In this document: positions 37,531 to 50,849 of the stretch, one piece after another
How positions within the stretch are numbered: position 1 is the first letter of the stretch
How the letters are laid out: every line of letters starts with the position of its first letter
From: Candidatus Latescibacterota bacterium
GTDB taxonomy: Bacteria > Latescibacterota > UBA2968 > GCA-2709665
Direction: 5' to 3'
DNA length: 64,000 bases
NCBI GenBank assembly: GCA_963662665.2
Contig: CAXXJS010000025.1
Span: forward strand, 64,001 to 128,000
Notes under the pieces: generated by a model
What the model was told of the DNA's origin: nothing
Databases searched by the model: none
What the model saw: only the letters and a program-made list of their open reading frames with translations
Program-made: the position numbers and the translations under genes

Positions 37531-38502
37531 ATGAAATACGGACGTGTCGAGGGAATTGACAAACCGGTATCACGGCTCGTTCAGGGCACGCTGATGTTGT
37601 CAACGGACAATCTCGAGGGGGGTATCGCATTCCTTGACAGTGTCCGGGCACTGGGTTGCAACGGTTTCGATACCGCGCCGGTATACGGTAACGGACAGGC
37701 GGAGCGGGCGCTCGGCGCCTGGATGGACCGCCGCGGAAATCGAAGCGACGTATTCATTTTGAGCAAGGGTTGCCATCCCAATGCGGACCGCGGCCGCCGG
37801 GTGACCGTCTTCGATCTCGCTTCCGACCTGTTCGATTCGCTGGCGCGGCTGAAGACGGATTTCATCGATCTCTACCTGCTTCACCGGGACGATCCGGGAG
37901 TCCCGGTCGGGCCGCTCGTTGAAGCCCTGAACGAACACGTGTCCGAAGGGCGCATTCGTGCGTTCGGCGGCTCCAACTGGTCGGCGAATCGGATCCGCGA
38001 GGCGAATTGCTACGCGCGGAATCACGGCCTGAGGCCCTTCGTGGCCAGCAGCCCGAATTTCAGCCTCGCCGTGCGCGTCAAGGAAGTCTGGGAGGGCTGC
38101 CTGAGCATCTCCGGCCCTCAGGGCGCTGAGGAACGGGCCTGGTATCGGGAATCGCAGATGCCCGTGTTTTCCTGGTCCAGCCTGGCGCAGGGCTTTTTCT
38201 CCGGTCTCCTGACGCGGGAGAACATCACAGGGATGGCGAGCGAAATTACGGAAGGCTGCGCTCAGGTCTACGGGTACGAAGAAAACTTCGTGCGGCTGGA
38301 ACGCGCGATCGAACTTGCCGGAGAACGCGGAAAGACCGTCGCGCAGATCGCACTTGCGTTTCTATACAACCAGCCACTGAACGTCTTCACGGTATCGGGC
38401 TGCAGGTCGGCTGAGGAAAGCCGTCTGAACCGGGAAGCCATGGCAGTCCGGTTGACGCCGGAGGAACTGGACTGGCTGGACCTTCGACGGGAGAAGCGGT
38501 GA
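37531..38502 (+). CDS. Aldo/keto reductase
   Basis: FDTAPVYG, LSKG, DLYLLHRD, GGSNW, WSSLAQG; RBS GGAGG. Confidence 0.92.
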   Translation: MKYGRVEGIDKPVSRLVQGTLMLSTDNLEGGIAFLDSVRALGCNGFDTAPVYGNGQAERALGAWMDRRGNRSDVFILSKGCHPNADRGRRVTVFDLASDLFDSLARLKTDFIDLYLLHRDDPGVPVGPLVEALNEHVSEGRIRAFGGSNWSANRIREANCYARNHGLRPFVASSPNFSLAVRVKEVWEGCLSISGPQGAEERAWYRESQMPVFSWSSLAQGFFSGLLTRENITGMASEITEGCAQVYGYEENFVRLERAIELAGERGKTVAQIALAFLYNQPLNVFTVSGCRSAEESRLNREAMAVRLTPEELDWLDLRREKR

Positions 38503-38573
38503 GCGATAACGTGCAACCGGAGATTGATCCGTTCGTCTAAATCCTGCAGGAGTGCTTCGTGACGCATAACAAT

Positions 38574-38744
38574 CCGTTGAAAAAGTCGCTCCGCAGGCGA
38601 GGTATGGTGTCCCGTCCCGGAAATATGTCATTGTGGCCGAAGACAAGACGCGCGACCGCGTCGAATCGGGGATTCGGGGAGGGAGCGCAACGCAGTCATT
38701 CGGCCACAAGGGCCGGACGTAGCCCGGATGGACTTTTTCAACGG
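38574..38744. mobile_element. MITE-like non-autonomous element (~171 bp)
   Basis: Perfect 14-bp terminal inverted repeats CCGTTGAAAAAGTC/GACTTTTTCAACGG and an internal inverted repeat TTGTGGCCGAA/TTCGGCCACAA; no transposase ORF. Confidence 0.7.
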
Positions 38745-38925
38745 GCTAATAACGGTCGGGGCATTGAAGGTTCCCTACCCGATTCCCCCGAAAATTCAAG
38801 GTATACCCGCTTAAATGCGTCTCATGCGGCGCTTTAGGCTTGACTGGAATCGGCAATGGGTCTAAATATTCGATATACAACGGTCGTGTCTGAATCACAC
38901 GTCGATTTGCGCGGACAACGGAACC

Positions 38926-40575
38926 ATGCCAGGGACACACCTGAAGACATTGTTGATCGAGGATAACCCGCTTCACACCCGCCTGATTCGCGAATTGCTC
39001 GCCAAATCCGAGGGTCCGGAGTTCGAGTTGGATTCGGCGGGTACGCTCACGGAAGGGCTGAACCGGCTTGCGTCGGCCCGGTACGAGTTGCTGCTGCTGG
39101 ACCTGGTGCTGCCTGACAGCGAGGACCTGGACACGTATTTCCGGGTGCGCGCAGCATACCCGGACCTGCCGGTTGTCATCCTGTCCGGCCTGAAGGATAT
39201 AAAGCTGGCGGCGCGGGCCGTTGAAGCGGGCGCGCAGGATTATCTTGTTAAGTCGAATATGAATGGTCCGGTGCTGGTGAGGTCGATCCGATACTCCGTG
39301 GAACGCAGCCGGGCGCTGCACGCCGAGTGGGAGTCGCCGATGTTCCGGCTGGCGCAGCAGCAGTTTCTGAAGGCAGCCCACCTGATGGAACTGGACGACA
39401 ACATCCGGCAGCGGCTGCTGTTTCCCCAGCGCACCCACGTCGTCACCTTTCCGTTCCGCCGGGACGAACACGAATACGTGGAAACGGTTTCCGGATACCG
39501 GATTCAGCACCTGTTGACGATGGGACCCACCAAGGGCGGCGTTCGCTACCATCACGACGTGAACCTGGGTGAGGTCTCCGCCCTGGCTATGTGGATGACC
39601 TGGAAGTGCGCCCTGATGAACCTGCCGTTTGGCGGCGCCAAGGGCGGTGTACGGATAGATCCAACCGTACTGTCACGTCCCGAACTACAGCGCCTGACAC
39701 GCCGGTATACATCGGAGATCATCGACGTTATCGGTCCGCAGAAGGACATCCCCGCACCGGACATGGGCACGGACGAACACGTAATGGCCTGGATGATGGA
39801 CACGTACAGCCATCAGACCGGACATACCGTACCCGCGGTCGTTACGGGCAAGCCGGTAGTGCTGGGCGGCTCCGAAGGACGCCGGGAGGCGACCGGACGG
39901 GGCCTGGTGTATCTGGTGGAGGAGGCGGCCAGGCACATCGGGATGGACCTGGGCAACGCAACCGCCGTCGTTCAGGGGTTCGGAAACGTGGGGAGCAATG
40001 CCGCGCGGTTTCTGAAAGCCTGCGGGGTCAAACTCGTGGGCGTAAGCGACGTGACCACCGGCATTTACAACCCCGACGGTCTTTCCATGGATTCGCTGAT
40101 GCAGCACGTGGATGAAAACCGGTTCCTGGAAGGCTACGCAGGCGGAGATGCCGTGAGCAATCAGGAATTGCTCGAGATACCGTGCGACATTCTTGTACCC
40201 GCGGCCCTGCAGAATCAGATCACCGCGGAAAATGCCGAACGTATTACGTGCCGGATGCTGGCTGAAGGCGCCAACGGACCCACCACGCTGGAGGCGGACG
40301 AGATCCTGAAGGAAAAAGGGGTGTTCATTCTGCCGGACGTACTCGGCAACGCCGGAGGGGTTACGGTGTCCTATTTCGAGTGGGTGCAGGACACGCAGAA
40401 CTACATGTGGACGCTCGACGAGATCAACGATCGGCTCAGGCAGATCCTGATGAACGCCTTCCTGCGGACGATACAACGGTCGGAACGCGATGGGCTGGAT
40501 ATGCGTACGGCGGCGTTGATAGAAGGCATTCACCGAGTGACACAGGCGAAGCTCCGGAGGGGCATCTTCCCATAG
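38926..40575 (+). CDS. Response-regulator receiver domain fused to Glu/Leu/Phe/Val (glutamate) dehydrogenase
   Basis: REC: LLIEDN, LLLLDL, ILSG, DYLVK. GDH: GPTKGGVRYH, MTWK, GGAKGG, DIPAPD, GR.EATG.G, QGFGNVG, EGANGP, NAGGVTVSYFEWVQ. Confidence 0.93.
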   Translation: MPGTHLKTLLIEDNPLHTRLIRELLAKSEGPEFELDSAGTLTEGLNRLASARYELLLLDLVLPDSEDLDTYFRVRAAYPDLPVVILSGLKDIKLAARAVEAGAQDYLVKSNMNGPVLVRSIRYSVERSRALHAEWESPMFRLAQQQFLKAAHLMELDDNIRQRLLFPQRTHVVTFPFRRDEHEYVETVSGYRIQHLLTMGPTKGGVRYHHDVNLGEVSALAMWMTWKCALMNLPFGGAKGGVRIDPTVLSRPELQRLTRRYTSEIIDVIGPQKDIPAPDMGTDEHVMAWMMDTYSHQTGHTVPAVVTGKPVVLGGSEGRREATGRGLVYLVEEAARHIGMDLGNATAVVQGFGNVGSNAARFLKACGVKLVGVSDVTTGIYNPDGLSMDSLMQHVDENRFLEGYAGGDAVSNQELLEIPCDILVPAALQNQITAENAERITCRMLAEGANGPTTLEADEILKEKGVFILPDVLGNAGGVTVSYFEWVQDTQNYMWTLDEINDRLRQILMNAFLRTIQRSERDGLDMRTAALIEGIHRVTQAKLRRGIFP

Positions 40576-40627
40576 TGTCCCGTCCTGGAGATAGATCGCC
40601 GGAACAGAACAATCAGGAAGGTCTGAA

Positions 40628-43600
40628 ATGGACGACTATGCCGACCCGCGCCTTCTGCGGCTGGCCGCGATAGCCTCGCAGACGGCGAATCTGATCGTTG
40701 TTATGCTGTCCATCCTGGTTCTGTCCGGATGGCTGGTCAGCGCACCCGTTGCCGAATGGATGTCGTTATTAACCGCGGGGATGTTCGTGCTCAGCGGCGC
40801 GGCGCTGTGGCTGTTGCGGAGCGGGAAGTCGTCCGCGCGGAGGCAGTTCCTCGGGAAGGCAATCGGCGCGGTTGTGGTGGTCTTCGCGATTCTGGAACTG
40901 GTTGGGGCGGGCCCTGAACTCATCGGCTTTGGCGCAGGCGCGGGACATATGCTGCGCGATGAGGCCTGCAACTTCGCCCTGATCGGCCTTGCATTGTTCC
41001 TGTGGCATTTCCGGATTCGGGAAATCGCCTGGCCGGCGCAGGCGTGTCTGTCGGTCGCCGCCATCCTTTCCGCGGGTTATGCGGTTGGCCACTTCTATCA
41101 CGCGGTCTCCCCCAGAGAAGTGTCATGGGACGTGCATCTGAGCGTCTTTACCACTCTGGCGTTCGGACTATTGTGCATCGGCATGTTTCTGTCACGGCCG
41201 GACCTGGAACCCACGACAACCATTGTCAGCAACACTGCCGGCGGATCGATGGCGCGCAGGCTGCTGCCGGCCGCTTTTCTGATTCCACTGGCGCTGGGCT
41301 GGCTCTGGCCCCACGGCGAAGGAATTCTGGGGTTCGAGTCCGGAATGTCCCTGTTTTCGCTGGGGGTCATCGTAGCGCTCAATATACTGATCTGGTGGTA
41401 CGCCCGGTCTCTCGCCGACGTGGATTCCGAACGGAAACGGTCGGAGCTGGCATTGCGGGAGAGCGAGGCCCGGCTAAAGCTGGCCATGGAAGCCGCCCAC
41501 ATGGGGAGTTGGGATTCCAATCTGCTGACCGGGGAACTGGTCTGGTCCGACCTGGTGGCGCCGTTGTTCGGGCTTACTCCGGAAATGTTCGAGGGTACGC
41601 GGGAGGCGTTTTATGTACTGGTGCACCCGGAAGACCGGACGATGGTCCGCAGCGCAGTGCGACGAACGATCAAGGAAGGCGTGGATTTCGAGGTGGAGCA
41701 CCGGGTTGTATGGCCGGACGGGACGATCCGATGGCTGGGGAACAAGGGACGCGTCTTCGGCGACACCGCGGGACAGAACGTGCATATGATCGGCACTGTC
41801 CGGGACATCACGCTGCGCAAGCGCGCCGAGATGCAACTTCAGGAAAAGAACCGCGAACTTGAAAAGACAGCGGCGGCCGAGCGTGAAGCCAACGAGGCGC
41901 TGAAAAAGAGTACGGCCGCCCTGGAGCGTTCGGGGGGTGAGTTGCAAAAGGCAAAGGACGCCGCAGAGCAGGCAAATCGGGCGAAGAGCGAGTTTCTTGC
42001 CAACATGAGCCACGAAATCCGGACGCCCATGAACGGCATTATGGGCATGACGGAGTTGCTGGGCAACACCGAGTTGACGCCCCAACAGCTGGAATACCTC
42101 AAGTTGAGTCGGCAGTCTTCCGAGGCATTGCTGGCGCTCCTGAACGATATTCTCGACTTTTCCAAGCTCGAGGTGGACAGGCTGGAGCTGGAATTGATCG
42201 GCTTCGACCTCCGGGATACGCTGGGGGACACCGTGCAGACCCTCGCGGTCAAAGCCACGCAAAAGGGGCTGGAACTGGCCTGCCATATCGCGCCGGACGT
42301 TCCGGACAGGCTGGTCGGCGACCCGGGCCGTTTGCGGCAGATCGTGATCAACCTGGTGGACAACGCCATCAAGTTCACGACGACGGGAGATGTGCTGGTT
42401 GACGTCAAGGTGGACTCCCGGGATGAAGAAAAGGTCGGCCTGAGGTTTTTTGTCCGCGATACGGGCATCGGCATCGCGCCGGAAGACCAGCAACCCATTT
42501 TCGATTCTTTCAGCCAGGTGGACTCTTCGACCTCCAGGCGATTTGGCGGTACCGGCCTGGGCCTGGCGATTTCGTCTCAATTGTCGTCAATGATGGGCGG
42601 ACGGATGTGGGTGGAAAGCGAACTGGACAAAGGGAGTACGTTTTATTTCACGGCGCAATTCGACGCCCAGCCTCAGCTGGCGAAGCGGTCTGCGGCCGAC
42701 CTCCAGAGCCTGGTGGGACTCCGCGCGCTGGTGGTGGACAACAACCGTACGAACCGGTTTATTTTCGAGGAGATGCTTGGAACCTGGGGTATGAAAATCG
42801 ATGTGGCGGATTCGGGGCCGGCTGCGCTGGACACGGTTCGCACGGCCGGGACGACGGGTCTGCCGTACAACCTGTTTCTGCTGGATGCAGTGATGCCGGA
42901 TATGGACGGGTTCGCGCTGGCTGAGCGTCTCAGGCAGGATCCCGTGACGAAGGATGTGCCGATCCTGATTCTTTCGTCCGCGGGGAGAACGCACGACGCG
43001 GTGCGATGTGACGCGCTGGGGCTTGCCAGGTGTCTGACAAAGCCGGTCAAGCAGTCCGACCTGCTCGATGCCACGTTGGCGGCACTCGATGTGAGTGTTG
43101 TCGAGACCGCGGACGTACCGACAATGGCGGAACCGTTACCGCCCGCCGCCAGGCGCCGCGTCCTGTTGGCAGAGGACGGCGCGGTAAACCGGAAAGTGAT
43201 TGTGGACCTGCTCGAGCCGCGAGGCCACCAGGTAACCGCCGTCAACAACGGCAAGGAGGTTCTCGCGGCGCTGGAGAACGAGACATTCGATCTGATCCTC
43301 ATGGATATCCAGATGCCTGAGATGGACGGTCTGGAGGCAACCCGCATAATCAGGGAGCGTGAAGGGTCGACAGGGGAGCGTATTCAAATTGCGGCGATGA
43401 CGGCGCACGTGATGCAGGGAGACAGGGAGCGGTGTCTGGCGGAGGGGATGGACGATTATCTCCCCAAACCCGTCCGGGCGGGAGATCTCTTCGATGTTGT
43501 GGAGAACAACGTCTCATCAGAACCCGCGTCGTTGGCGGAACCGGGCGATGATGGAGGCGCGCTCGATTGGCAGGGGGCCCTCGAACAGGTTGGCGGGAAC

Positions 43601-43900
43601 GAGGCGATACTGGGCGAACTGGCGGAGCTGTTTGTCACCGAATACGTCAGGCACCTGAAAGAAATGAAACGGGCGATCGGCCACGGCGACAGCACCCTGT
43701 TGCGGCGCGCGGCGCACACGCTGAAGGGTTCGGCGGCCGTATTTCTTGCCAACTCGACCGTCGAGGCCGCGTTGCGGCTGGAAAACATGGCGCGGGAAGG
43801 GGATCTTGAATACGTGAATGAAGCGTTCGCCGCACTCGAACGGGCAGCGGATGAGCTGTTGCCCGCACTGAAGGAAAAAGCGGCTGAGGTTGTTGCGTAG
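40628..43900 (+). CDS. Membrane hybrid sensor histidine kinase (multi-TM, PAS, HisKA, HATPase, 2 REC, HPt)
   Basis: About 7 TM helices; VHPEDR PAS; FLANMSHEIRTPMNG; NAIKFT, DTGIG, GGTGLGL; LDAVMP and MDIQMP receivers; AAHTLKGS HPt. Confidence 0.95.
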   Translation: MDDYADPRLLRLAAIASQTANLIVVMLSILVLSGWLVSAPVAEWMSLLTAGMFVLSGAALWLLRSGKSSARRQFLGKAIGAVVVVFAILELVGAGPELIGFGAGAGHMLRDEACNFALIGLALFLWHFRIREIAWPAQACLSVAAILSAGYAVGHFYHAVSPREVSWDVHLSVFTTLAFGLLCIGMFLSRPDLEPTTTIVSNTAGGSMARRLLPAAFLIPLALGWLWPHGEGILGFESGMSLFSLGVIVALNILIWWYARSLADVDSERKRSELALRESEARLKLAMEAAHMGSWDSNLLTGELVWSDLVAPLFGLTPEMFEGTREAFYVLVHPEDRTMVRSAVRRTIKEGVDFEVEHRVVWPDGTIRWLGNKGRVFGDTAGQNVHMIGTVRDITLRKRAEMQLQEKNRELEKTAAAEREANEALKKSTAALERSGGELQKAKDAAEQANRAKSEFLANMSHEIRTPMNGIMGMTELLGNTELTPQQLEYLKLSRQSSEALLALLNDILDFSKLEVDRLELELIGFDLRDTLGDTVQTLAVKATQKGLELACHIAPDVPDRLVGDPGRLRQIVINLVDNAIKFTTTGDVLVDVKVDSRDEEKVGLRFFVRDTGIGIAPEDQQPIFDSFSQVDSSTSRRFGGTGLGLAISSQLSSMMGGRMWVESELDKGSTFYFTAQFDAQPQLAKRSAADLQSLVGLRALVVDNNRTNRFIFEEMLGTWGMKIDVADSGPAALDTVRTAGTTGLPYNLFLLDAVMPDMDGFALAERLRQDPVTKDVPILILSSAGRTHDAVRCDALGLARCLTKPVKQSDLLDATLAALDVSVVETADVPTMAEPLPPAARRRVLLAEDGAVNRKVIVDLLEPRGHQVTAVNNGKEVLAALENETFDLILMDIQMPEMDGLEATRIIREREGSTGERIQIAAMTAHVMQGDRERCLAEGMDDYLPKPVRAGDLFDVVENNVSSEPASLAEPGDDGGALDWQGALEQVGGNEAILGELAELFVTEYVRHLKEMKRAIGHGDSTLLRRAAHTLKGSAAVFLANSTVEAALRLENMAREGDLEYVNEAFAALERAADELLPALKEKAAEVVA

Positions 43901-44079
43901 TGGATCGAATGTGGAGCATTGCACTACCCTTGGCGCACTATCGGACTTTTTGCATTGTCGTCATCTCCGCTCCACCTGAAGACACGGACAGCCGCCGTGC
44001 CGGAAATTCCACCACCCTATAATATGGCAGTACGTAGAATCTATCTTATCGGGTACGTCTCTTACAACAGGAGTACGAA

Positions 44080-44325
44080 ATGTCAGTGGAATACCAGCTT
44101 CGTCTTCAGATCAGGCGAGTAGAAAACGGCCAATACCTCGCTACCTCCGAAGATTTCGACGGACTGGTGGCGCAGGGACGAACAGTGGCTGAAACGGTTG
44201 AGATTGCTCAAGATGTTGCCAGGAAGCTTGTCGAATCCTGCAGGGAACATGGCGACCCGCTACCGAATGGATTGCATCCGATAGACATGGATATCCTGGA
44301 GTTGGATATTCCCGTAGGTGTTTGA
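44080..44325 (+). CDS. hicB: HicB-family antitoxin (short form)
   Basis: YLATS....GLVAQGRTVAET...A.D. Confidence 0.82.
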   Translation: MSVEYQLRLQIRRVENGQYLATSEDFDGLVAQGRTVAETVEIAQDVARKLVESCREHGDPLPNGLHPIDMDILELDIPVGV

Positions 44326-44549
44326 TGGGCCGGCTCGCGGGTTTCACTTACAGACAGATAATCCAGAGACTAAGGCGGTTGGGATTCACGTTTGACCGAA
44401 ACGCACGAGGCAGTCACGAGATTTGGTGGAACCCCGTTACTCGACATCGAACGACGATTCCCAACCACTCTGGAGATCTGCCGGAGGGTACCGTATCTGC
44501 CATTCTGAAACGAGCCGGAGTAACGGCGGAAGACTTCCTTCGAGCGTAA
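44325..44549 (+). CDS. hicA: HicA-family mRNA interferase toxin
   Basis: LGF..R..GSHE.W..TTIPNH..L..GT...IL; TGATG overlap with hicB. Confidence 0.88.
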   Translation: MGRLAGFTYRQIIQRLRRLGFTFDRNARGSHEIWWNPVTRHRTTIPNHSGDLPEGTVSAILKRAGVTAEDFLRA

Positions 44550-44794
44550 GATTCTGTTAGTCGAATTCGAACTAAGATGATGCCCCCTCAGGGGGCATTC
44601 TTGGTATATTGGGAATGCGAACATCTCAGGCTGATACGATCCTGAACATCGGTATATACAGAGACCTGGAACACATTGCCACAACGGCTCGGCAACACCA
44701 GAATTTGGGTCTAAGAAAACGTATATGAACAGAAAAAGAACGCCTTCGCGGCAGTTGTCTCCATCTGACGAGAGCAGTCTTAAGGAGGCACTGG

Positions 44795-44953
44795 ATGAGG
44801 AGCTTTAGACGTCATCTGAATGAGAAGCTCAAAGATGAGCGATTCAGGCGACTGTATGAGGAAGAGCGACAGCTTACCGAGCTGTCGTTGAAGATCCACC
44901 AACTGCGTGTACGCGTGACGGGGAAATTTCGCAGATGTTCAGGCGGGGCATAA
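44795..44953 (+). pseudogene. Truncated XRE/HigA-type antitoxin (N-terminus only)
   Basis: RBS TAAGGAGG; MRSFRRHLNEKLKDERFRRLYEEERQLTELSLKIHQLR then diverges and stops where the HTH would begin. Confidence 0.6.
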
Positions 44954-45035
44954 TCTTTCCGATGGCAGGTTCAAGAATGATAGACACGATTCAAGGGAAT
45001 CTCAAGAAACGTGTAAACGCATATGGAGATTTCAG

Positions 45036-45482
45036 ATGAACCTTTGCTTCAGACGTATCTTCGTTGTCATCCTTGTGGCCCTGGCCTGGGCCGTGGTATG
45101 GTCGCCGGTTGGCGTGCTGACAGGGATCATCGTGGATCCGGGCGGCTCAATGGATGAAATGTGGGTGGCGATCGGGGCGTATCCCGGATTCCTCTGCGGT
45201 GCGGTCTTTTCCGCGGTGGTGGGGATTGCGGAGGGCCGTCGCAGGCTCAACGAGATCGCGCTTTCGCGAGTCGCCGGCTGGGGAGCCGTGAGCGGTCTGG
45301 TTGTAGGCGTGATTCCGTTTGTTCTTGGAACGGTGAATACCGCCCTTCCGCTCTGGCTGTGGAGCATCGTAACCGTCGGCGCCGTGACGATACTGAGTTC
45401 AGCCTCGGCTTTCGGCACCGCGTCGATTGCCAGGATGGCGAAGAAGCGAGCATTGCACGGCGCGAGTGGGGACGCGGTGTAG
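45036..45482 (+). CDS. Hypothetical 4-TM membrane protein
   Basis: Four hydrophobic segments; RBS GGAG. Confidence 0.7.
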   Translation: MNLCFRRIFVVILVALAWAVVWSPVGVLTGIIVDPGGSMDEMWVAIGAYPGFLCGAVFSAVVGIAEGRRRLNEIALSRVAGWGAVSGLVVGVIPFVLGTVNTALPLWLWSIVTVGAVTILSSASAFGTASIARMAKKRALHGASGDAV

Positions 45483-45506
45483 ACTAAAGCGCCGGAGGAG
45501 AAGACC

Positions 45507-46205
45507 TTGCGCATCTCAGCGATTTCATTTGATGGCGACATGACCCTGTGGGATTTCAATAAGGTCATGAGGCATTCAATGAAACATGCATTGGTGGAAC
45601 TGCGCAGGAAGGTCCCTACAGAACTTGCATCGCGCCTCACAATAGACGAGATGATTGGCATTCGCGATCAGGTTGCCGAGGAATTTAAGGGCAGGGTATG
45701 GAAACTCTCGGAGATCAGACGAATTGCATTTGAGAGGACGCTTGAGCGCGTTGGTTGTCGCGACAGCAGTCTGGCTCTTCGTTTGAATCAGGTATATCGG
45801 AAGCGTCGTTTTGAAGACATCGAGCTGTATCCGGATGTGCTGCCGGCCTTCGATATTCTATCTCCGCATTTCAATATCGGGCTTCTGTCAAACGGGAACA
45901 GCTACCCGGAACACTGTGGACTCGAAGGACATTTTGCCTTTGTCGTGTTTTCACAGGATGTGCGTATCGAGAAGCCCGATCCACGGATCTTTCAGATCAC
46001 CGCGCGCCGGGCGGGCTGTCCGGTTGAGCGGCTTCTGCACGTGGGAGACTCCTTGGAAAACGACGTTGCGGGAGCGCACAATGCGGGAGCGCTTTCTATG
46101 TGGCTGAATCGCGATGGCGTGAGGAACGGCACCGGGATCCAGGCCGATTACGAGATTACTTCGTTGGCCGACATGCCTTTACTATTGGGTATCGGTCGCA
46201 GCTGA
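45507..46205 (+). CDS. HAD-family hydrolase
   Basis: FDGDMTL, LSNG, EKPDP, GDSLENDV. Confidence 0.9.
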   Translation: MRISAISFDGDMTLWDFNKVMRHSMKHALVELRRKVPTELASRLTIDEMIGIRDQVAEEFKGRVWKLSEIRRIAFERTLERVGCRDSSLALRLNQVYRKRRFEDIELYPDVLPAFDILSPHFNIGLLSNGNSYPEHCGLEGHFAFVVFSQDVRIEKPDPRIFQITARRAGCPVERLLHVGDSLENDVAGAHNAGALSMWLNRDGVRNGTGIQADYEITSLADMPLLLGIGRS

Positions 46206-46248
46206 TCTCACACTGAGGATGCGTTTTCCAAAGCATGAGGACACGACA

Positions 46249-46737
46249 ATGAAAAGACTTATTCCAATTATTGCGCTACTGTTGTCCTGCGGTGAAATGG
46301 AAAGCGAAGTAAATCCATTGGTCGGTGAATGGGTCTTTGTTCAACAGGACAATGAAAGACTGATCAGCGCCCTTGTTCACCACTATCGCTCACGTGACCT
46401 TGCTGCCCAAACTGTTAGCGAAATGCCGACGACACTCGACAATTATGTGCTTAAATTCAACGCGGATCTCACATATTCTGATAGTTTTGGCGCAGACGGA
46501 ACCTGGAGTGCAACACAAACTGACGTAACAATGACTGAAAACTATGACATACTTGCAATGCCCTATGTTATCATGGATTCAGAATTAGTGCTTTCTCTCC
46601 GCCGACCAGAAATGTTGATCCTTTTATACAAGAATTTAGGCGATGACAAATATTCAGAAATAGCCACGGTCTACAGAACAGCTATGCCCTACTTTATTGA
46701 TACGCCCCTCGTTCGATTAACTTTTCGCCGTCAGTAA
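46249..46737 (+). CDS. Hypothetical lipoprotein (lipocalin-like), low GC
   Basis: MKRLIPIIALLLSC lipobox; LVGEW and GTW motifs. Confidence 0.65.
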   Translation: MKRLIPIIALLLSCGEMESEVNPLVGEWVFVQQDNERLISALVHHYRSRDLAAQTVSEMPTTLDNYVLKFNADLTYSDSFGADGTWSATQTDVTMTENYDILAMPYVIMDSELVLSLRRPEMLILLYKNLGDDKYSEIATVYRTAMPYFIDTPLVRLTFRRQ

Positions 46738-46809
46738 GATCACAACGCGAAGTAAATCCTCAGCTTACCCAATACGGGAAGGTCAGAGACATTCAGATGG
46801 AGGATCCGA

Positions 46810-47394
46810 ATGGCGGGCTGGATCGAATTCACATTCCCGGTTGAAACAGGAAAGAGTTCTCTGCTTGTTATCGATGACGAACGAGCCGGTCTGCTCGCGG
46901 ACCCCCTTCGGCGGCGCATCCTGGAAACTCTTGGCGAGGGGAAATCCGTAGCGGAGATTTCGTCGAGGTTGGGTGTTACCGATACCCGGATTCTCCGCCA
47001 TCTGGAAAGACTCGCGGAATCAGATGTCGTACATCTTCAAGAGACTGGTAGCGATCCCAGGGCCTGGCGTTGCCTCCCCGCGGCAGCCAGGATTCGAATC
47101 CGGGACACACTTGATGAGACGGCCAAAACCTCCGAGCCTGTACCCTCGGAGGTTGCCTGCCAGTTTAATCAGGCATTTCGCGAAAGTGCGGACGGCATAT
47201 TCGGTCCGAATTTCCAAAGCTCTGTCAACCATAACCGGGCTCGACTCTCTGACGGTCAGGCGTCTGAATTCAACCGTCGGCTCCTGGATCTGATCGAGGA
47301 GTACTTTCCACCCGGCAAGGGAGATCCCACCGGCATCAAGTATGGCTTTTTCGGCGTGCTGACCCCGATTGATCTGCCTCCCATTGAGTCGTGA
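46810..47394 (+). CDS. ArsR-like winged-HTH transcriptional regulator
   Basis: LADPLRRRILETL..SVAEI...LG......HL..L. Confidence 0.8.
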   Translation: MAGWIEFTFPVETGKSSLLVIDDERAGLLADPLRRRILETLGEGKSVAEISSRLGVTDTRILRHLERLAESDVVHLQETGSDPRAWRCLPAAARIRIRDTLDETAKTSEPVPSEVACQFNQAFRESADGIFGPNFQSSVNHNRARLSDGQASEFNRRLLDLIEEYFPPGKGDPTGIKYGFFGVLTPIDLPPIES

Positions 47395-47484
47395 CAGAGC
47401 GTATTGGTCGCGATCTTGTATCGGGATGTAACATATCCCAGTACAGATCCGATACCGAAATAGGCGAGGGACCCGAGAAACACC

Positions 47485-48288
47485 ATGGATGGAAAACGCA
47501 ACCCAGTTCGGATAAAGGCCTTCTGCGTCGGGCAGGCGAAGTCCGGAACGGCATCTCTCGTCGGCCTGCTTTCAACCAATTACCGCGCGGCGCATGAGCC
47601 GGAGCGACCGGAGTTGCTCGATATGATACTCCGCGAGTCCCGCGGCGAACTCTCCGCCGAGGCCTTCCGGAAGTTTCTCCTCGAGCGTGACGTCCGGCTC
47701 AACCTGGAGTATGATGTCTCGTGGGTAAACCAGTTCGTTATAGGCCATCTGCTGGACGTCTTCCCTGCCTCGAAGTTCATCGTTCTCATCCGCGACAGTT
47801 ATTCGTGGCTTCAATCCGCCATCGGGCACGTCATCAGCCGCGAGTTGCCCTCTGAAATCGTAAACTTTCTCCCCTGGTGGATCAATCCGGAATGCTATCC
47901 CCACTCGCGTCAGGATCGTGCGCTTGCGGAACGCGGGCTTTATTCAATTGCGGCCTATCTGCACGCCTGGAACGACCATGTCAACAGGTGTACCCCGCAG
48001 ATCCCTGAGGACCGGCGGCTTGTACTTCGGACCCATGAACTGGCTCATTCGCACGCGCGATTGGCGGACTTCCTGGAAATACCGTTGGATACGCTCGACG
48101 CGGGAAGCGGGCATCAGAACCGCAGCACGTGGGCGGACCGGATCGAGTCCCTCGTCGATCCGGCCTACGTCGACGACATGGTCCAATCGATATGCGCTGA
48201 CAACATGGCCCGTTACTTTCCCGAAGTCAAAAGCGCTCAGGATGTGCCGGGGTTATGGGAAGCCGTACCGCGTGAGCCGGCGACCTGA
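47485..48288 (+). CDS. Sulfotransferase-family protein
   Basis: 5'-PSB loop VGQAKSGTASL, HEP, 3'-PB motif LIRD..SWLQS. Confidence 0.75.
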   Translation: MDGKRNPVRIKAFCVGQAKSGTASLVGLLSTNYRAAHEPERPELLDMILRESRGELSAEAFRKFLLERDVRLNLEYDVSWVNQFVIGHLLDVFPASKFIVLIRDSYSWLQSAIGHVISRELPSEIVNFLPWWINPECYPHSRQDRALAERGLYSIAAYLHAWNDHVNRCTPQIPEDRRLVLRTHELAHSHARLADFLEIPLDTLDAGSGHQNRSTWADRIESLVDPAYVDDMVQSICADNMARYFPEVKSAQDVPGLWEAVPREPAT

Positions 48289-50321: not shown

Positions 50322-50849
50322 GTGAACAGACACAGGCCACTACCCGTTCGCTTTTTTCGTACGACGACAGGACGTGAACCGGTCAGAGCCTGGCTGCGCG
50401 GTCTGGACCGCGAATCCAGAAAGATCATTGGTGCCGACGTCAAGACCGTTCAATTCGGGCGGCCTCTTGGAATGCCGCTGGTCCGAAAACTCGAAGGCGA
50501 TCTTTGGGAGGTCCGCTGCAGACTGCCCGATTCAATTGCCCGAGTCGTCTTTACGCTTTACGGTGGCACGATGAGAAAACATATCGGCAGCTATTTCGAT
50601 GAGTTCCTCAAGGAAGAGGGTCTCCTCGGTGAATCAGAAGCGACGGCAGCGAAACGCGTGATTGCGTTTCAGTTGAGCCAGTTCATGAAGGAACACAAGC
50701 TGTCCAAATCCGAGATGGCGAGGCGCATTCAAACCAGCCGGTCGGCGCTGGACCGTCTGTTAGATGCTTCGAATTCCTCGGTAACCCTGCGGACATTGGA
50801 CCGCGCTGCACAAGTTCTCGGCCGACAACTCCGCATCGCGTTGATATAA
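50322..50849 (+). CDS. In-frame fusion of a truncated RelE/Gp49-like toxin and an XRE antitoxin
   Basis: Residues 1-83: FFRT..G.EPVR.WL..GMPLVRKL...LWEVR. From ATG 50571: HIGS.FDEFL.EEG..MA....TSRS.LDRLLD..TL.TL..AA. Confidence 0.75.
   Translation: MNRHRPLPVRFFRTTTGREPVRAWLRGLDRESRKIIGADVKTVQFGRPLGMPLVRKLEGDLWEVRCRLPDSIARVVFTLYGGTMRKHIGSYFDEFLKEEGLLGESEATAAKRVIAFQLSQFMKEHKLSKSEMARRIQTSRSALDRLLDASNSSVTLRTLDRAAQVLGRQLRIALI

Follow-up and report, generated by a model that had tools for sequence, protein, structure and literature searches.

A receiver domain fused to glutamate dehydrogenase beside a hybrid sensor kinase: a candidate phosphorelay with a metabolic enzyme as output

Two-component systems are usually presented as switches that act on transcription, chemotaxis or second messengers. 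Response regulators with enzyme outputs are known as well: CheB methylesterase, the PleD and WspR cyclases, RpfG, and the phosphatases in which a receiver (REC) domain is joined to PP2C or SpoIIE; in relays, a histidine-phosphotransfer (HPt) domain needs a terminal receiver as acceptor. Here we consider a gene that joins a receiver to glutamate dehydrogenase (GDH), called REC-GDH below. Together with a hybrid sensor kinase gene directly behind it, the gene is located in a stretch of 64,000 nucleotides from Candidatus Latescibacterota bacterium (contig CAXXJS010000025.1 of assembly GCA_963662665.2, positions 64,001 to 128,000); this whole stretch is referred to as the window, and coordinates are window positions unless stated otherwise. 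We think it probable that a dedicated His-Asp-His-Asp relay ends on the receiver of the GDH itself and would control the enzyme post-translationally.

Known controls of GDH include GarA/OdhI binding and RocG-GltC. In Thermus the enzyme is a GdhA/GdhB heterohexamer controlled by leucine and by an AMP-binding partner (excerpts of PMC9570180 and PMC12301742); an excerpt of PMC12301742 also describes Ser/Thr phosphorylation of S. pombe Gdh1. A full-text literature search returned neither a characterised receiver-GDH nor an Asp-phosphorylated GDH, though P2CS and census supplements, which lay outside the search, may list members. The gene type is widespread and uncharacterised in print; the function proposed for it here is plausible, judging from sequence.

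Architecture of the fused gene

The features of the fused gene are the following.

38926..40575 (+): REC-GDH gene, a predicted terminal response regulator with GDH output; 549 aa plus stop
38926..39318 (+): receiver domain, aa 1-131; (beta-alpha)5 fold closing in helix alpha5 (114-131), from Pfam and an AlphaFold2 model
39100..39102 (+): codon of Asp59, the predicted phospho-acceptor; invariant in 208/208 fused proteins and in 31/31 rows of an alignment denoted A1
39319..39336 (+): six-residue connector, aa 132-137 (HAEWES), from REC alpha5 to the first GDH helix
39337..40572 (+): complete GDH body, aa 138-549, with K203, K227, K239, D279, S482 and the GFGNVG dinucleotide fold

The first-pass annotation had read a canonical receiver and a complete GDH in one 549-aa open reading frame (ORF), and every motif it named is present in the translation. 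The receiver part has E12-D13, D59 (in LLLLDL), S87 (ILSG), Y106 and K109 (YLVK); the GDH part has KGG at 203-205, MTWK at 224-227, GGAKGG at 236-241, APD at 277-279 and GFGNVG at 351-356. Three Pfam domains were found: Response_reg (PF00072) at aa 9-111 (58.7 bits versus the Pfam cut-off of 30.2), ELFV_dehydrog_N (PF02812) at aa 167-296 (176 bits) and ELFV_dehydrog (PF00208) at aa 314-546 (266 bits), the last two exceeding their Pfam cut-offs as well. Residues 3-416 of Thermotoga maritima GDH (1b26) are collinear with aa 136-549, with no large gaps (E 8e-140). By sequence, the GDH part falls into the hexameric-type (about 50 kDa) ELFV family. The protein scored below the NCBIfam equivalog cut-offs of GdhB_Halo (492.7 versus 620 bits) and GdhA_Arch (477.6 versus 750); we thus classify it, from profile scores, as an ELFV-type GDH but no equivalog of either. 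A search of solved structures found no chain spanning receiver and GDH together.

The fusion is real and not an assembly artefact, because independent contigs bridge the junction of receiver and GDH. At least half of the sampled words of 38700-41700 were contained in 11 public runs, four of which (one per study) were examined. In all four runs single contigs cross the junction with no indel, and in three of them a contig also spans the gap into the kinase gene. No RNA data set was listed as containing this stretch. Contigs and relatives (208 fused relatives, described below) both bear out the fusion reported by the first-pass annotation.

To describe conservation we gathered 214 proteins of 500-600 aa, a set of best matches and not a census; six had no receiver, which left 208 fused proteins. 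E12, D13, D59, Y/F106 and K109 were kept in 208/208 of these and S/T87 in 207/208. The functional quintet of a receiver consists of the acidic pair, the phospho-acceptor Asp, a Ser/Thr, the beta5 Tyr/Phe and a Lys; a conserved aromatic residue (Y/F) in beta5 typifies terminal receivers signalling allosterically (PMC9981736). In its profile score, quintet, predicted fold and adjacent putative phospho-donor, the window receiver looks like a phosphorylatable terminal REC. As for the GDH part, K203, K227, K239, D279 and S482 are invariant in alignment A1, and all five are intact in 199/208 fused proteins; we take them to be the catalytic Lys and Asp and the glutamate-binding Lys and Ser, with roles as in work on the Clostridium symbiosum enzyme. 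Since the window protein retains all five positions, it does not appear to be a catalytically inactive regulatory subunit of the Thermus GdhA type. Nor does it resemble the non-phosphorylated REC-like wing of the AAT-fold decarboxylases, quintet and kinase neighbour both being conserved.

A single AlphaFold2 model of REC-GDH, built from a shallow 31-row alignment (pTM 0.50), was usable only for the secondary structure of the receiver and for the connector. The model has strands at 5-11, 32-38, 55-59, 83-87 and 105-108 and helices at 15-26, 41-50, 67-77, 89-100 and 114-131, with pLDDT of 85-94 across most of the receiver. The connector (132-137) is non-helical in the model, pLDDT being below 50 for residues 133-137, and is followed by a GDH helix at 138-153. 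Within the connector E134 is invariant and W135 is at least 90% conserved in alignment A1. Conservation scores of the receiver elements were 0.77 for alpha4, 0.87 for beta5 and 0.71 for alpha5, versus 0.61, 0.52 and 0.56 for alpha1-3; the first GDH helix scored 0.89. Eighteen positions set the fused clade apart, with conservation of 95% or more within it and of 15% or less among 141 standalone GDHs; 11 of them are in aa 139-199 and four in the C-terminal helices. Such positions could reflect shared descent rather than function.

Distribution and decay of the fusion

The 120 best listed homologues in a collection of 5.8 billion proteins all had the same three Pfam domains, lengths of 539-566 aa and 70-90% identity, and database proteins with this architecture number in the hundreds. 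The rarity that the first-pass annotation had attached to this gene was therefore overstated: the architecture is common, and P2CS listed GDH as a probable two-component enzyme in 2009. An Asp-phosphorylated GDH that has been characterised was still not found. Named carriers belong to Gemmatimonadota, Planctomycetota, Gammaproteobacteria, Myxococcota, Lujinxingia and Latescibacteria. Described species among the carriers, by record titles and source names, are Gimesia maris, Gimesia algae, Halomonas stenophila CECT 7744, Lujinxingia vulgaris TMQ2, Pontibacterium granulatum and Roseiconus nitratireducens; as these may be culturable, the idea of a phosphorylation-controlled GDH is testable by ordinary enzymology.

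Of 168 genomes from the phylum of the window, 23 gave a full-length match: 17/21 genomes of one family (f1) plus the window's genome, 5/76 of another (f4) and 0/70 of twelve other families. All 15 genomes of the window's genus (15/15) have REC-GDH as the single match to this query. The window's genome (4.86 Mb) is 92% complete, and an absence from an incomplete genome is no proof; with this in mind, REC-GDH was the only ELFV-type GDH found in it, and no large Bac_GDH was found. Glutamate synthase (GOGAT) and glutamine synthetase (GS) are both present.

In a FastTree tree of GDH domains (161 rows, the window and 160 loci) the 18 fused GDH domains and two REC-less ones (L012, L014; L numbers denote loci) formed one clade with support 99. 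On this tree the fusion appears to have arisen once within the sample, and it is now present in several phyla. The nearest non-GDH receiver, 44% identical over 136 aa, comes from a REC-SpoIIE/PP2C response regulator of a related genome; the receiver would therefore stem from a lineage already driving enzymes. As for larger fusions, none of 26 longer proteins at E <= 1e-50 listed a receiver domain. A different fusion of GDH to signalling domains was seen in P0358 (1028 aa), in which GDH domains are combined with GGDEF (PF00990) and an HD-type domain (PF13487).

Some relatives have lost one of the two parts. In a full-length tree of 41 rows, L012 and L014 were nested in the fused clade, L009-L011 were basal, and catalytically dead forms appeared in three places. 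The receiver-less GDHs (L012:7959-9257, L014:7896-9254) are 69-73% identical to the fused GDH part, begin just ahead of the EW(D)SPMF connector and lack a neighbouring kinase; their nested position suggests secondary loss of the receiver. The basal Pirellulales/Planctomycetota subclade (L009:8004-9644, L010:2339-3979, L011:8001-9641) has an intact GDH and a decayed receiver, with EGD in place of EDN and Ile in place of Ser/Thr at position 87; no kinase adjoins the gene in the available sequence, the flanks of L010 being only about 2 kb on each side. In the catalytically dead forms (P0124, P0137, P0140, P0247, P0273, P0274, L174:7229-8872 (-) and L176:5102-6748 (-)) the receiver is canonical (E, D, D, T, Y, K) and catalytic residues of the GDH are lost, with K203 changed to L/M/F/V, K227 to Q/R, K239 to M/F/Y/A and D279 to G. 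The genomes with such a REC-pseudoGDH (G154, G155; the L174 and L176 loci) also encode standalone GDHs.

Coexistence of a REC-pseudoGDH and standalone GDHs in G154 and G155 would fit a reading in which phosphorylation alters the partnerships of the protein and not its catalysis, i.e. its assembly state, the formation of mixed hexamers with another GDH, or binding to another protein (as in a trigger enzyme). There are precedents for a subunit or domain with such a role: excerpts of PMC9570180 and PMC12301742 describe the catalytically inactive GdhA as the regulatory subunit of the Thermus heterohexamers, and the REC-like wing of AAT-fold decarboxylases is needed for the decamer, according to an excerpt of PMC8503589. 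We still give this explanation a low probability for the window protein. No second GDH was found in the window's genus with these queries, which makes mixed hexamers unlikely there; furthermore, the kinase is the only conserved partner gene.

The kinase neighbour

The relay that we favour, one ending on the GDH-fused receiver, depends on the gene downstream, which has the following features.

40576..40627 (+): intergenic gap of 52 nt with a ribosome-binding site
40628..43900 (+): hybrid sensor kinase gene, 1090 aa plus stop; PAS_3, HisKA, HATPase_c, two Response_reg and Hpt by Pfam
40628..41407 (+): integral-membrane sensor region, about aa 1-260, by hydropathy
41537..41800 (+): PAS_3, aa 304-391, by Pfam
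41981..42658 (+): kinase core, HisKA (aa 452-515) and HATPase_c (aa 564-677), by Pfam; H-box His invariant
42728..43072 (contig 106728-107072) (+): first internal receiver; Asp and Lys invariant in 9/9 cores
43160..43501 (+): second internal receiver; ED, D, T and K invariant in 9/9 cores
43616..43858 (+): HPt domain, predicted phospho-donor to Asp59; His of AHTLKGSA invariant in 9/9 cores

Pfam and hydropathy agree with the first-pass annotation, which had placed a multi-TM PAS hybrid kinase with two receivers and an HPt 52 nt downstream of the fused gene. At least five hydrophobic 19-mers were seen within aa 1-256 in the hydropathy scan. The membrane region matched no Pfam family, and the Atlas returned only unnamed or MASE-like look-alikes; it is 35-48% identical to that of the kinases at L001, L002, L083, L084, L173, L175 and L177. 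The H-box His, the Asp of both receivers and the His of the HPt are invariant across nine aligned kinase cores. Scores fell below the NCBIfam cut-offs of BarA (483 versus 890) and TorS (460 versus 676.5), and orthology to BarA, TorS or ArcB is not supported.

The two genes are probably co-transcribed, because the 52-nt gap carries a ribosome-binding site (AGGAAGG, 6 nt 5' of the kinase ATG); no terminator-like site was found within the gap, and in other fused loci the corresponding gap is 16-53 nt or the genes overlap. No Rfam family matched in 38300-45600. The absence of a DNA-binding response regulator nearby, another point of the first-pass annotation, held as well: the genome has 22 REC matches, the three on this contig all belong to the REC-GDH and kinase genes, and the 19 neighbouring ORFs scanned at 27-52 kb encode unrelated enzymes, with no response regulator among them. 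The one HPt domain detected in the genome belongs to the adjacent kinase.

The comparison covered 24 fused loci beyond the genus of the window: 17 came from public scans, and the others are L168, L169 and L173-L177. In 14 of the 24 (L001, L002, L005, L006, L008, L013, L082, L083, L084, L086, L169, L173, L175, L177) a HisKA-HATPase-REC-REC-Hpt kinase, whose core is 40-56% identical to that of the window, directly adjoins the fusion on the same strand; at L008 and L086 the kinase ORF, as called, does not include the HPt. At L168, from a related genus, the gene after the fusion (L168:9678-10487) encodes a standalone REC-Hpt of 269 aa, 57% identical to the C-terminal end of the window kinase, which suggests that the conserved contact is made by the HPt end. 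Five contigs (L003, L004, L007, L010, L085) were too short to judge. A kinase core or a REC-HPt is thus adjacent in 15 of the 19 judgeable loci. By contrast, no homologue of the kinase core or the HPt was found in 143 loci with a standalone GDH (0/143; 0/68 of those with at least 3 kb on both sides), whereas in the same comparison 10/17 fused loci had a kinase-core homologue (10/12 with at least 3 kb on both sides). Gene order therefore strongly supports the view that the fusion is accompanied, from one phylum to another, by a kinase core or at least a REC-HPt module, and the neighbourhood proposed by the first-pass annotation proved conserved.

While the core is retained, the sensors vary: we saw a multi-TM membrane domain with or without PAS, dCache with HAMP and PAS, CHASE, GAF with PAS, and, next to CheA/CheB genes, two extra receivers. 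Identity matrices of REC-GDH and the kinase core correlate with r 0.95, a value reached by 0/5000 permutations (10 pairs); this counts for little, because close kin drive the correlation and shared descent predicts the same. One candidate for a split fusion, L051:7995-10278 from a Gaiellaceae metagenome-assembled genome (MAG), was rejected; a NarL-type regulator gene located 355 nt 5' of a standalone GDH is an ordinary arrangement.

One could suppose that the receiver is a structural wing which is never phosphorylated, while the neighbouring kinase signals elsewhere. A precedent exists in the REC-like wing of extended AAT-fold decarboxylases, which serves oligomerisation (excerpt of PMC8503589), and the subclade L009-L011, with its decayed receiver and no adjacent kinase in the available sequence, would suit such a role. 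For the family as a whole we regard it as highly improbable, given the full quintet kept in 207-208 of the 208 proteins and the contrast of 15/19 versus 0/143 loci.

Information could also run in the opposite direction, entering through the GDH body and leaving through the receiver. The protein would then be a phosphate sink gated by metabolites, or a partner for back-transfer: with glutamate, 2-oxoglutarate or NAD(P)H bound, the receiver would gain or lose phosphate at a different rate, and the kinase signal to other regulators would be tuned in this way. This idea gains a little from the canonical receivers that persist where the GDH has lost its catalytic lysines, and it would fit the two internal receivers of the kinase and the further REC matches of the genome. 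However, the catalytic residues are intact in 199/208 proteins and REC-GDH is the sole ELFV GDH found in the genome, which argues that catalysis is under selection here; also, the contig encodes no second output regulator, and the bare REC-Hpt neighbour at L168 points to the fusion as the end of the relay. We consider such a reversed flow of information quite unlikely.

Some neighbours at other loci are worth recording. At L005:1570-12360, a Pirellulales MAG, the kinase has four receivers and is located downstream of CheA-REC and CheB genes, with a REC-PAS-SpoIIE gene further downstream on the opposite strand; here a pathway of the chemosensory type seems to feed into the GDH relay. A TrkA-N/TrkA-C/ion-channel gene was seen beyond the kinase in Gemmatimonadota-type loci (L001:12702-14396 (-), L002:12752-14446 (-)), a trehalose-phosphatase gene (L004:3006-4136 (+)) is just upstream of the fusion in another locus, and many carriers have marine labels. 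One could speculate, and at present only speculate, that the neighbours at L001, L002 and L004 and the marine carriers reflect a link to osmotic adaptation.

The proposed relay and known systems

In the relay that we propose, the two genes would make a self-contained four-step phosphorelay with an enzyme, not a promoter, as output. The membrane/PAS kinase would autophosphorylate on the H-box His, and the phosphoryl group would pass to the Asp of an internal receiver, to the His of the HPt and finally to Asp59 of the GDH-fused receiver. Phosphorylation of Asp59 would switch the receiver through Ser87/Tyr106 coupling; from there the change would run along the alpha4-beta5-alpha5 face and across the six-residue connector, reach the first GDH helix and domain I within the hexamer, and alter catalysis. 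As for direction, the analogy of other enzyme-output regulators leads us to guess that phosphorylation activates the enzyme, either because an inhibition is relieved or because receivers of neighbouring subunits pair. Within seconds, a membrane-sensed signal could in this way set the flux that connects glutamate with 2-oxoglutarate and ammonium, and in this genus it would do so on the only GDH detected. We infer phosphotransfer, effect on catalysis, direction and structural route alike from sequence features.

Several observations weigh against a dedicated relay of this kind. About 19 other REC matches in the genome could also accept phosphate from the HPt. The AlphaFold2 model fails on GDH domain I (pLDDT 32-49) and is uninformative on how the receiver sits on the enzyme. 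The adjacency counts given above include kin (L001/L002/L084; L175/L177) and thus overstate the independence of the loci. Four of the 24 fused loci have no kinase in the available flanking sequence: L009 and L011, in which the receiver has decayed (G at D13, I at S/T87), and L174 and L176, in which the catalytic Lys239 is lost. The kinase is thus absent exactly where one of the fused domains, receiver or GDH, has decayed, a pattern that we count in favour of the pairing. At least three independent lineages in the tree keep a canonical receiver yet lose catalytic residues of the GDH, so that the receiver-GDH body can serve a role other than catalysis; L012 and L014, on the other side, show that no receiver is needed for the GDH body to work as a gene.

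A wider speculation takes both the varied sensors and the dead enzymes into account. The receiver-GDH could be a portable signal-to-flux module by which any sensor kinase with a matching REC-HPt end directly gates the glutamate/2-oxoglutarate node without a change of expression; the same scaffold would have become, at least three times, a phospho-regulated pseudo-enzyme, and a pseudo-subunit could join ordinary GDH hexamers, in the manner of Thermus GdhA, and confer two-component control on them in trans. Taken as a whole we hold this to be unlikely. If it were true, two-component signalling would act on central metabolism through a phosphorylated Asp on an enzyme subunit, and control of this kind has yet to be described for any dehydrogenase.

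The relay proposed for the window would, if true, let a membrane signal directly and quickly reset the carbon-nitrogen branch point through a receiver on the chain of a core dehydrogenase. It would also offer a clean system for asking how a switch of 130 residues controls a hexamer of 300 kDa. With its swappable sensors and repeated pseudo-enzyme offshoots, the family may be useful for studying the evolution of signalling outputs.

Other features were observed around the two genes. A dispersed repeat at 38702-38746 (+), about 180 nt 5' of the REC-GDH start codon, has a 36-base core with 46 copies in the genome at <=3 mismatches (0 for a reversed-pattern control); many contigs from the four runs stack on it, and it may be REP-like. 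G+C falls to 0.53 at 44001-48000, just 3' of the kinase gene, from about 0.60 in the surroundings. An ORF at 50322-50849 (+) is Gp49/HigB-like in its N-terminal part and has an HTH of the Cro/C1 type in its C-terminal part; it looks like fused toxin-antitoxin modules, or two genes read as one.

In print, the search turned up a single mention, an entry in Table 1 of P2CS (2009), in which glutamate dehydrogenase, EC 1.4.1.3, is given as 'Probable' in two-component proteins (PMC2716373). It shows that the domain combination had been seen by 2009; it is one line, without analysis of partners, distribution or function. The GDH controls of Thermus, S. pombe, GarA/OdhI and RocG-GltC resemble the proposed one in being post-translational and in acting at the carbon-nitrogen node; none of them has an Asp-phosphorylated receiver on the GDH chain.

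We know of no phosphorylation of the wing in the winged AAT-fold arginine/ornithine/lysine decarboxylases. These enzymes, as described in an excerpt of PMC8503589, share with REC-GDH a CheY-like domain at the N-terminus of an oligomeric amino-acid enzyme and a single origin of the fusion followed by spread. Among cases in which a CheY-like domain is joined to an enzyme of amino-acid metabolism, they come closest to REC-GDH. REC-GDH differs from them in conserving the phospho-acceptor quintet and a partner kinase.

The window kinase is similar to kinases of the BarA/TorS/ArcB type in that a single chain carries HisKA, HATPase, REC and HPt and the His, Asp and His are conserved; it differs in its two internal receivers, and in that the putative terminal receiver bears an enzyme and not a DNA-binding domain. 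With the enzyme-output regulators REC-GDH shares an N-terminal, predicted phosphorylatable receiver fused to an enzyme, the pairing with a kinase, and motifs common with the REC-SpoIIE receiver. Its connector is about six residues, whereas theirs is a helical spacer, and its output is a hexameric-type oxidoreductase of central metabolism and not a signalling enzyme. Enzyme-output regulators and HPt relays are already textbook; the novelty here is the output.

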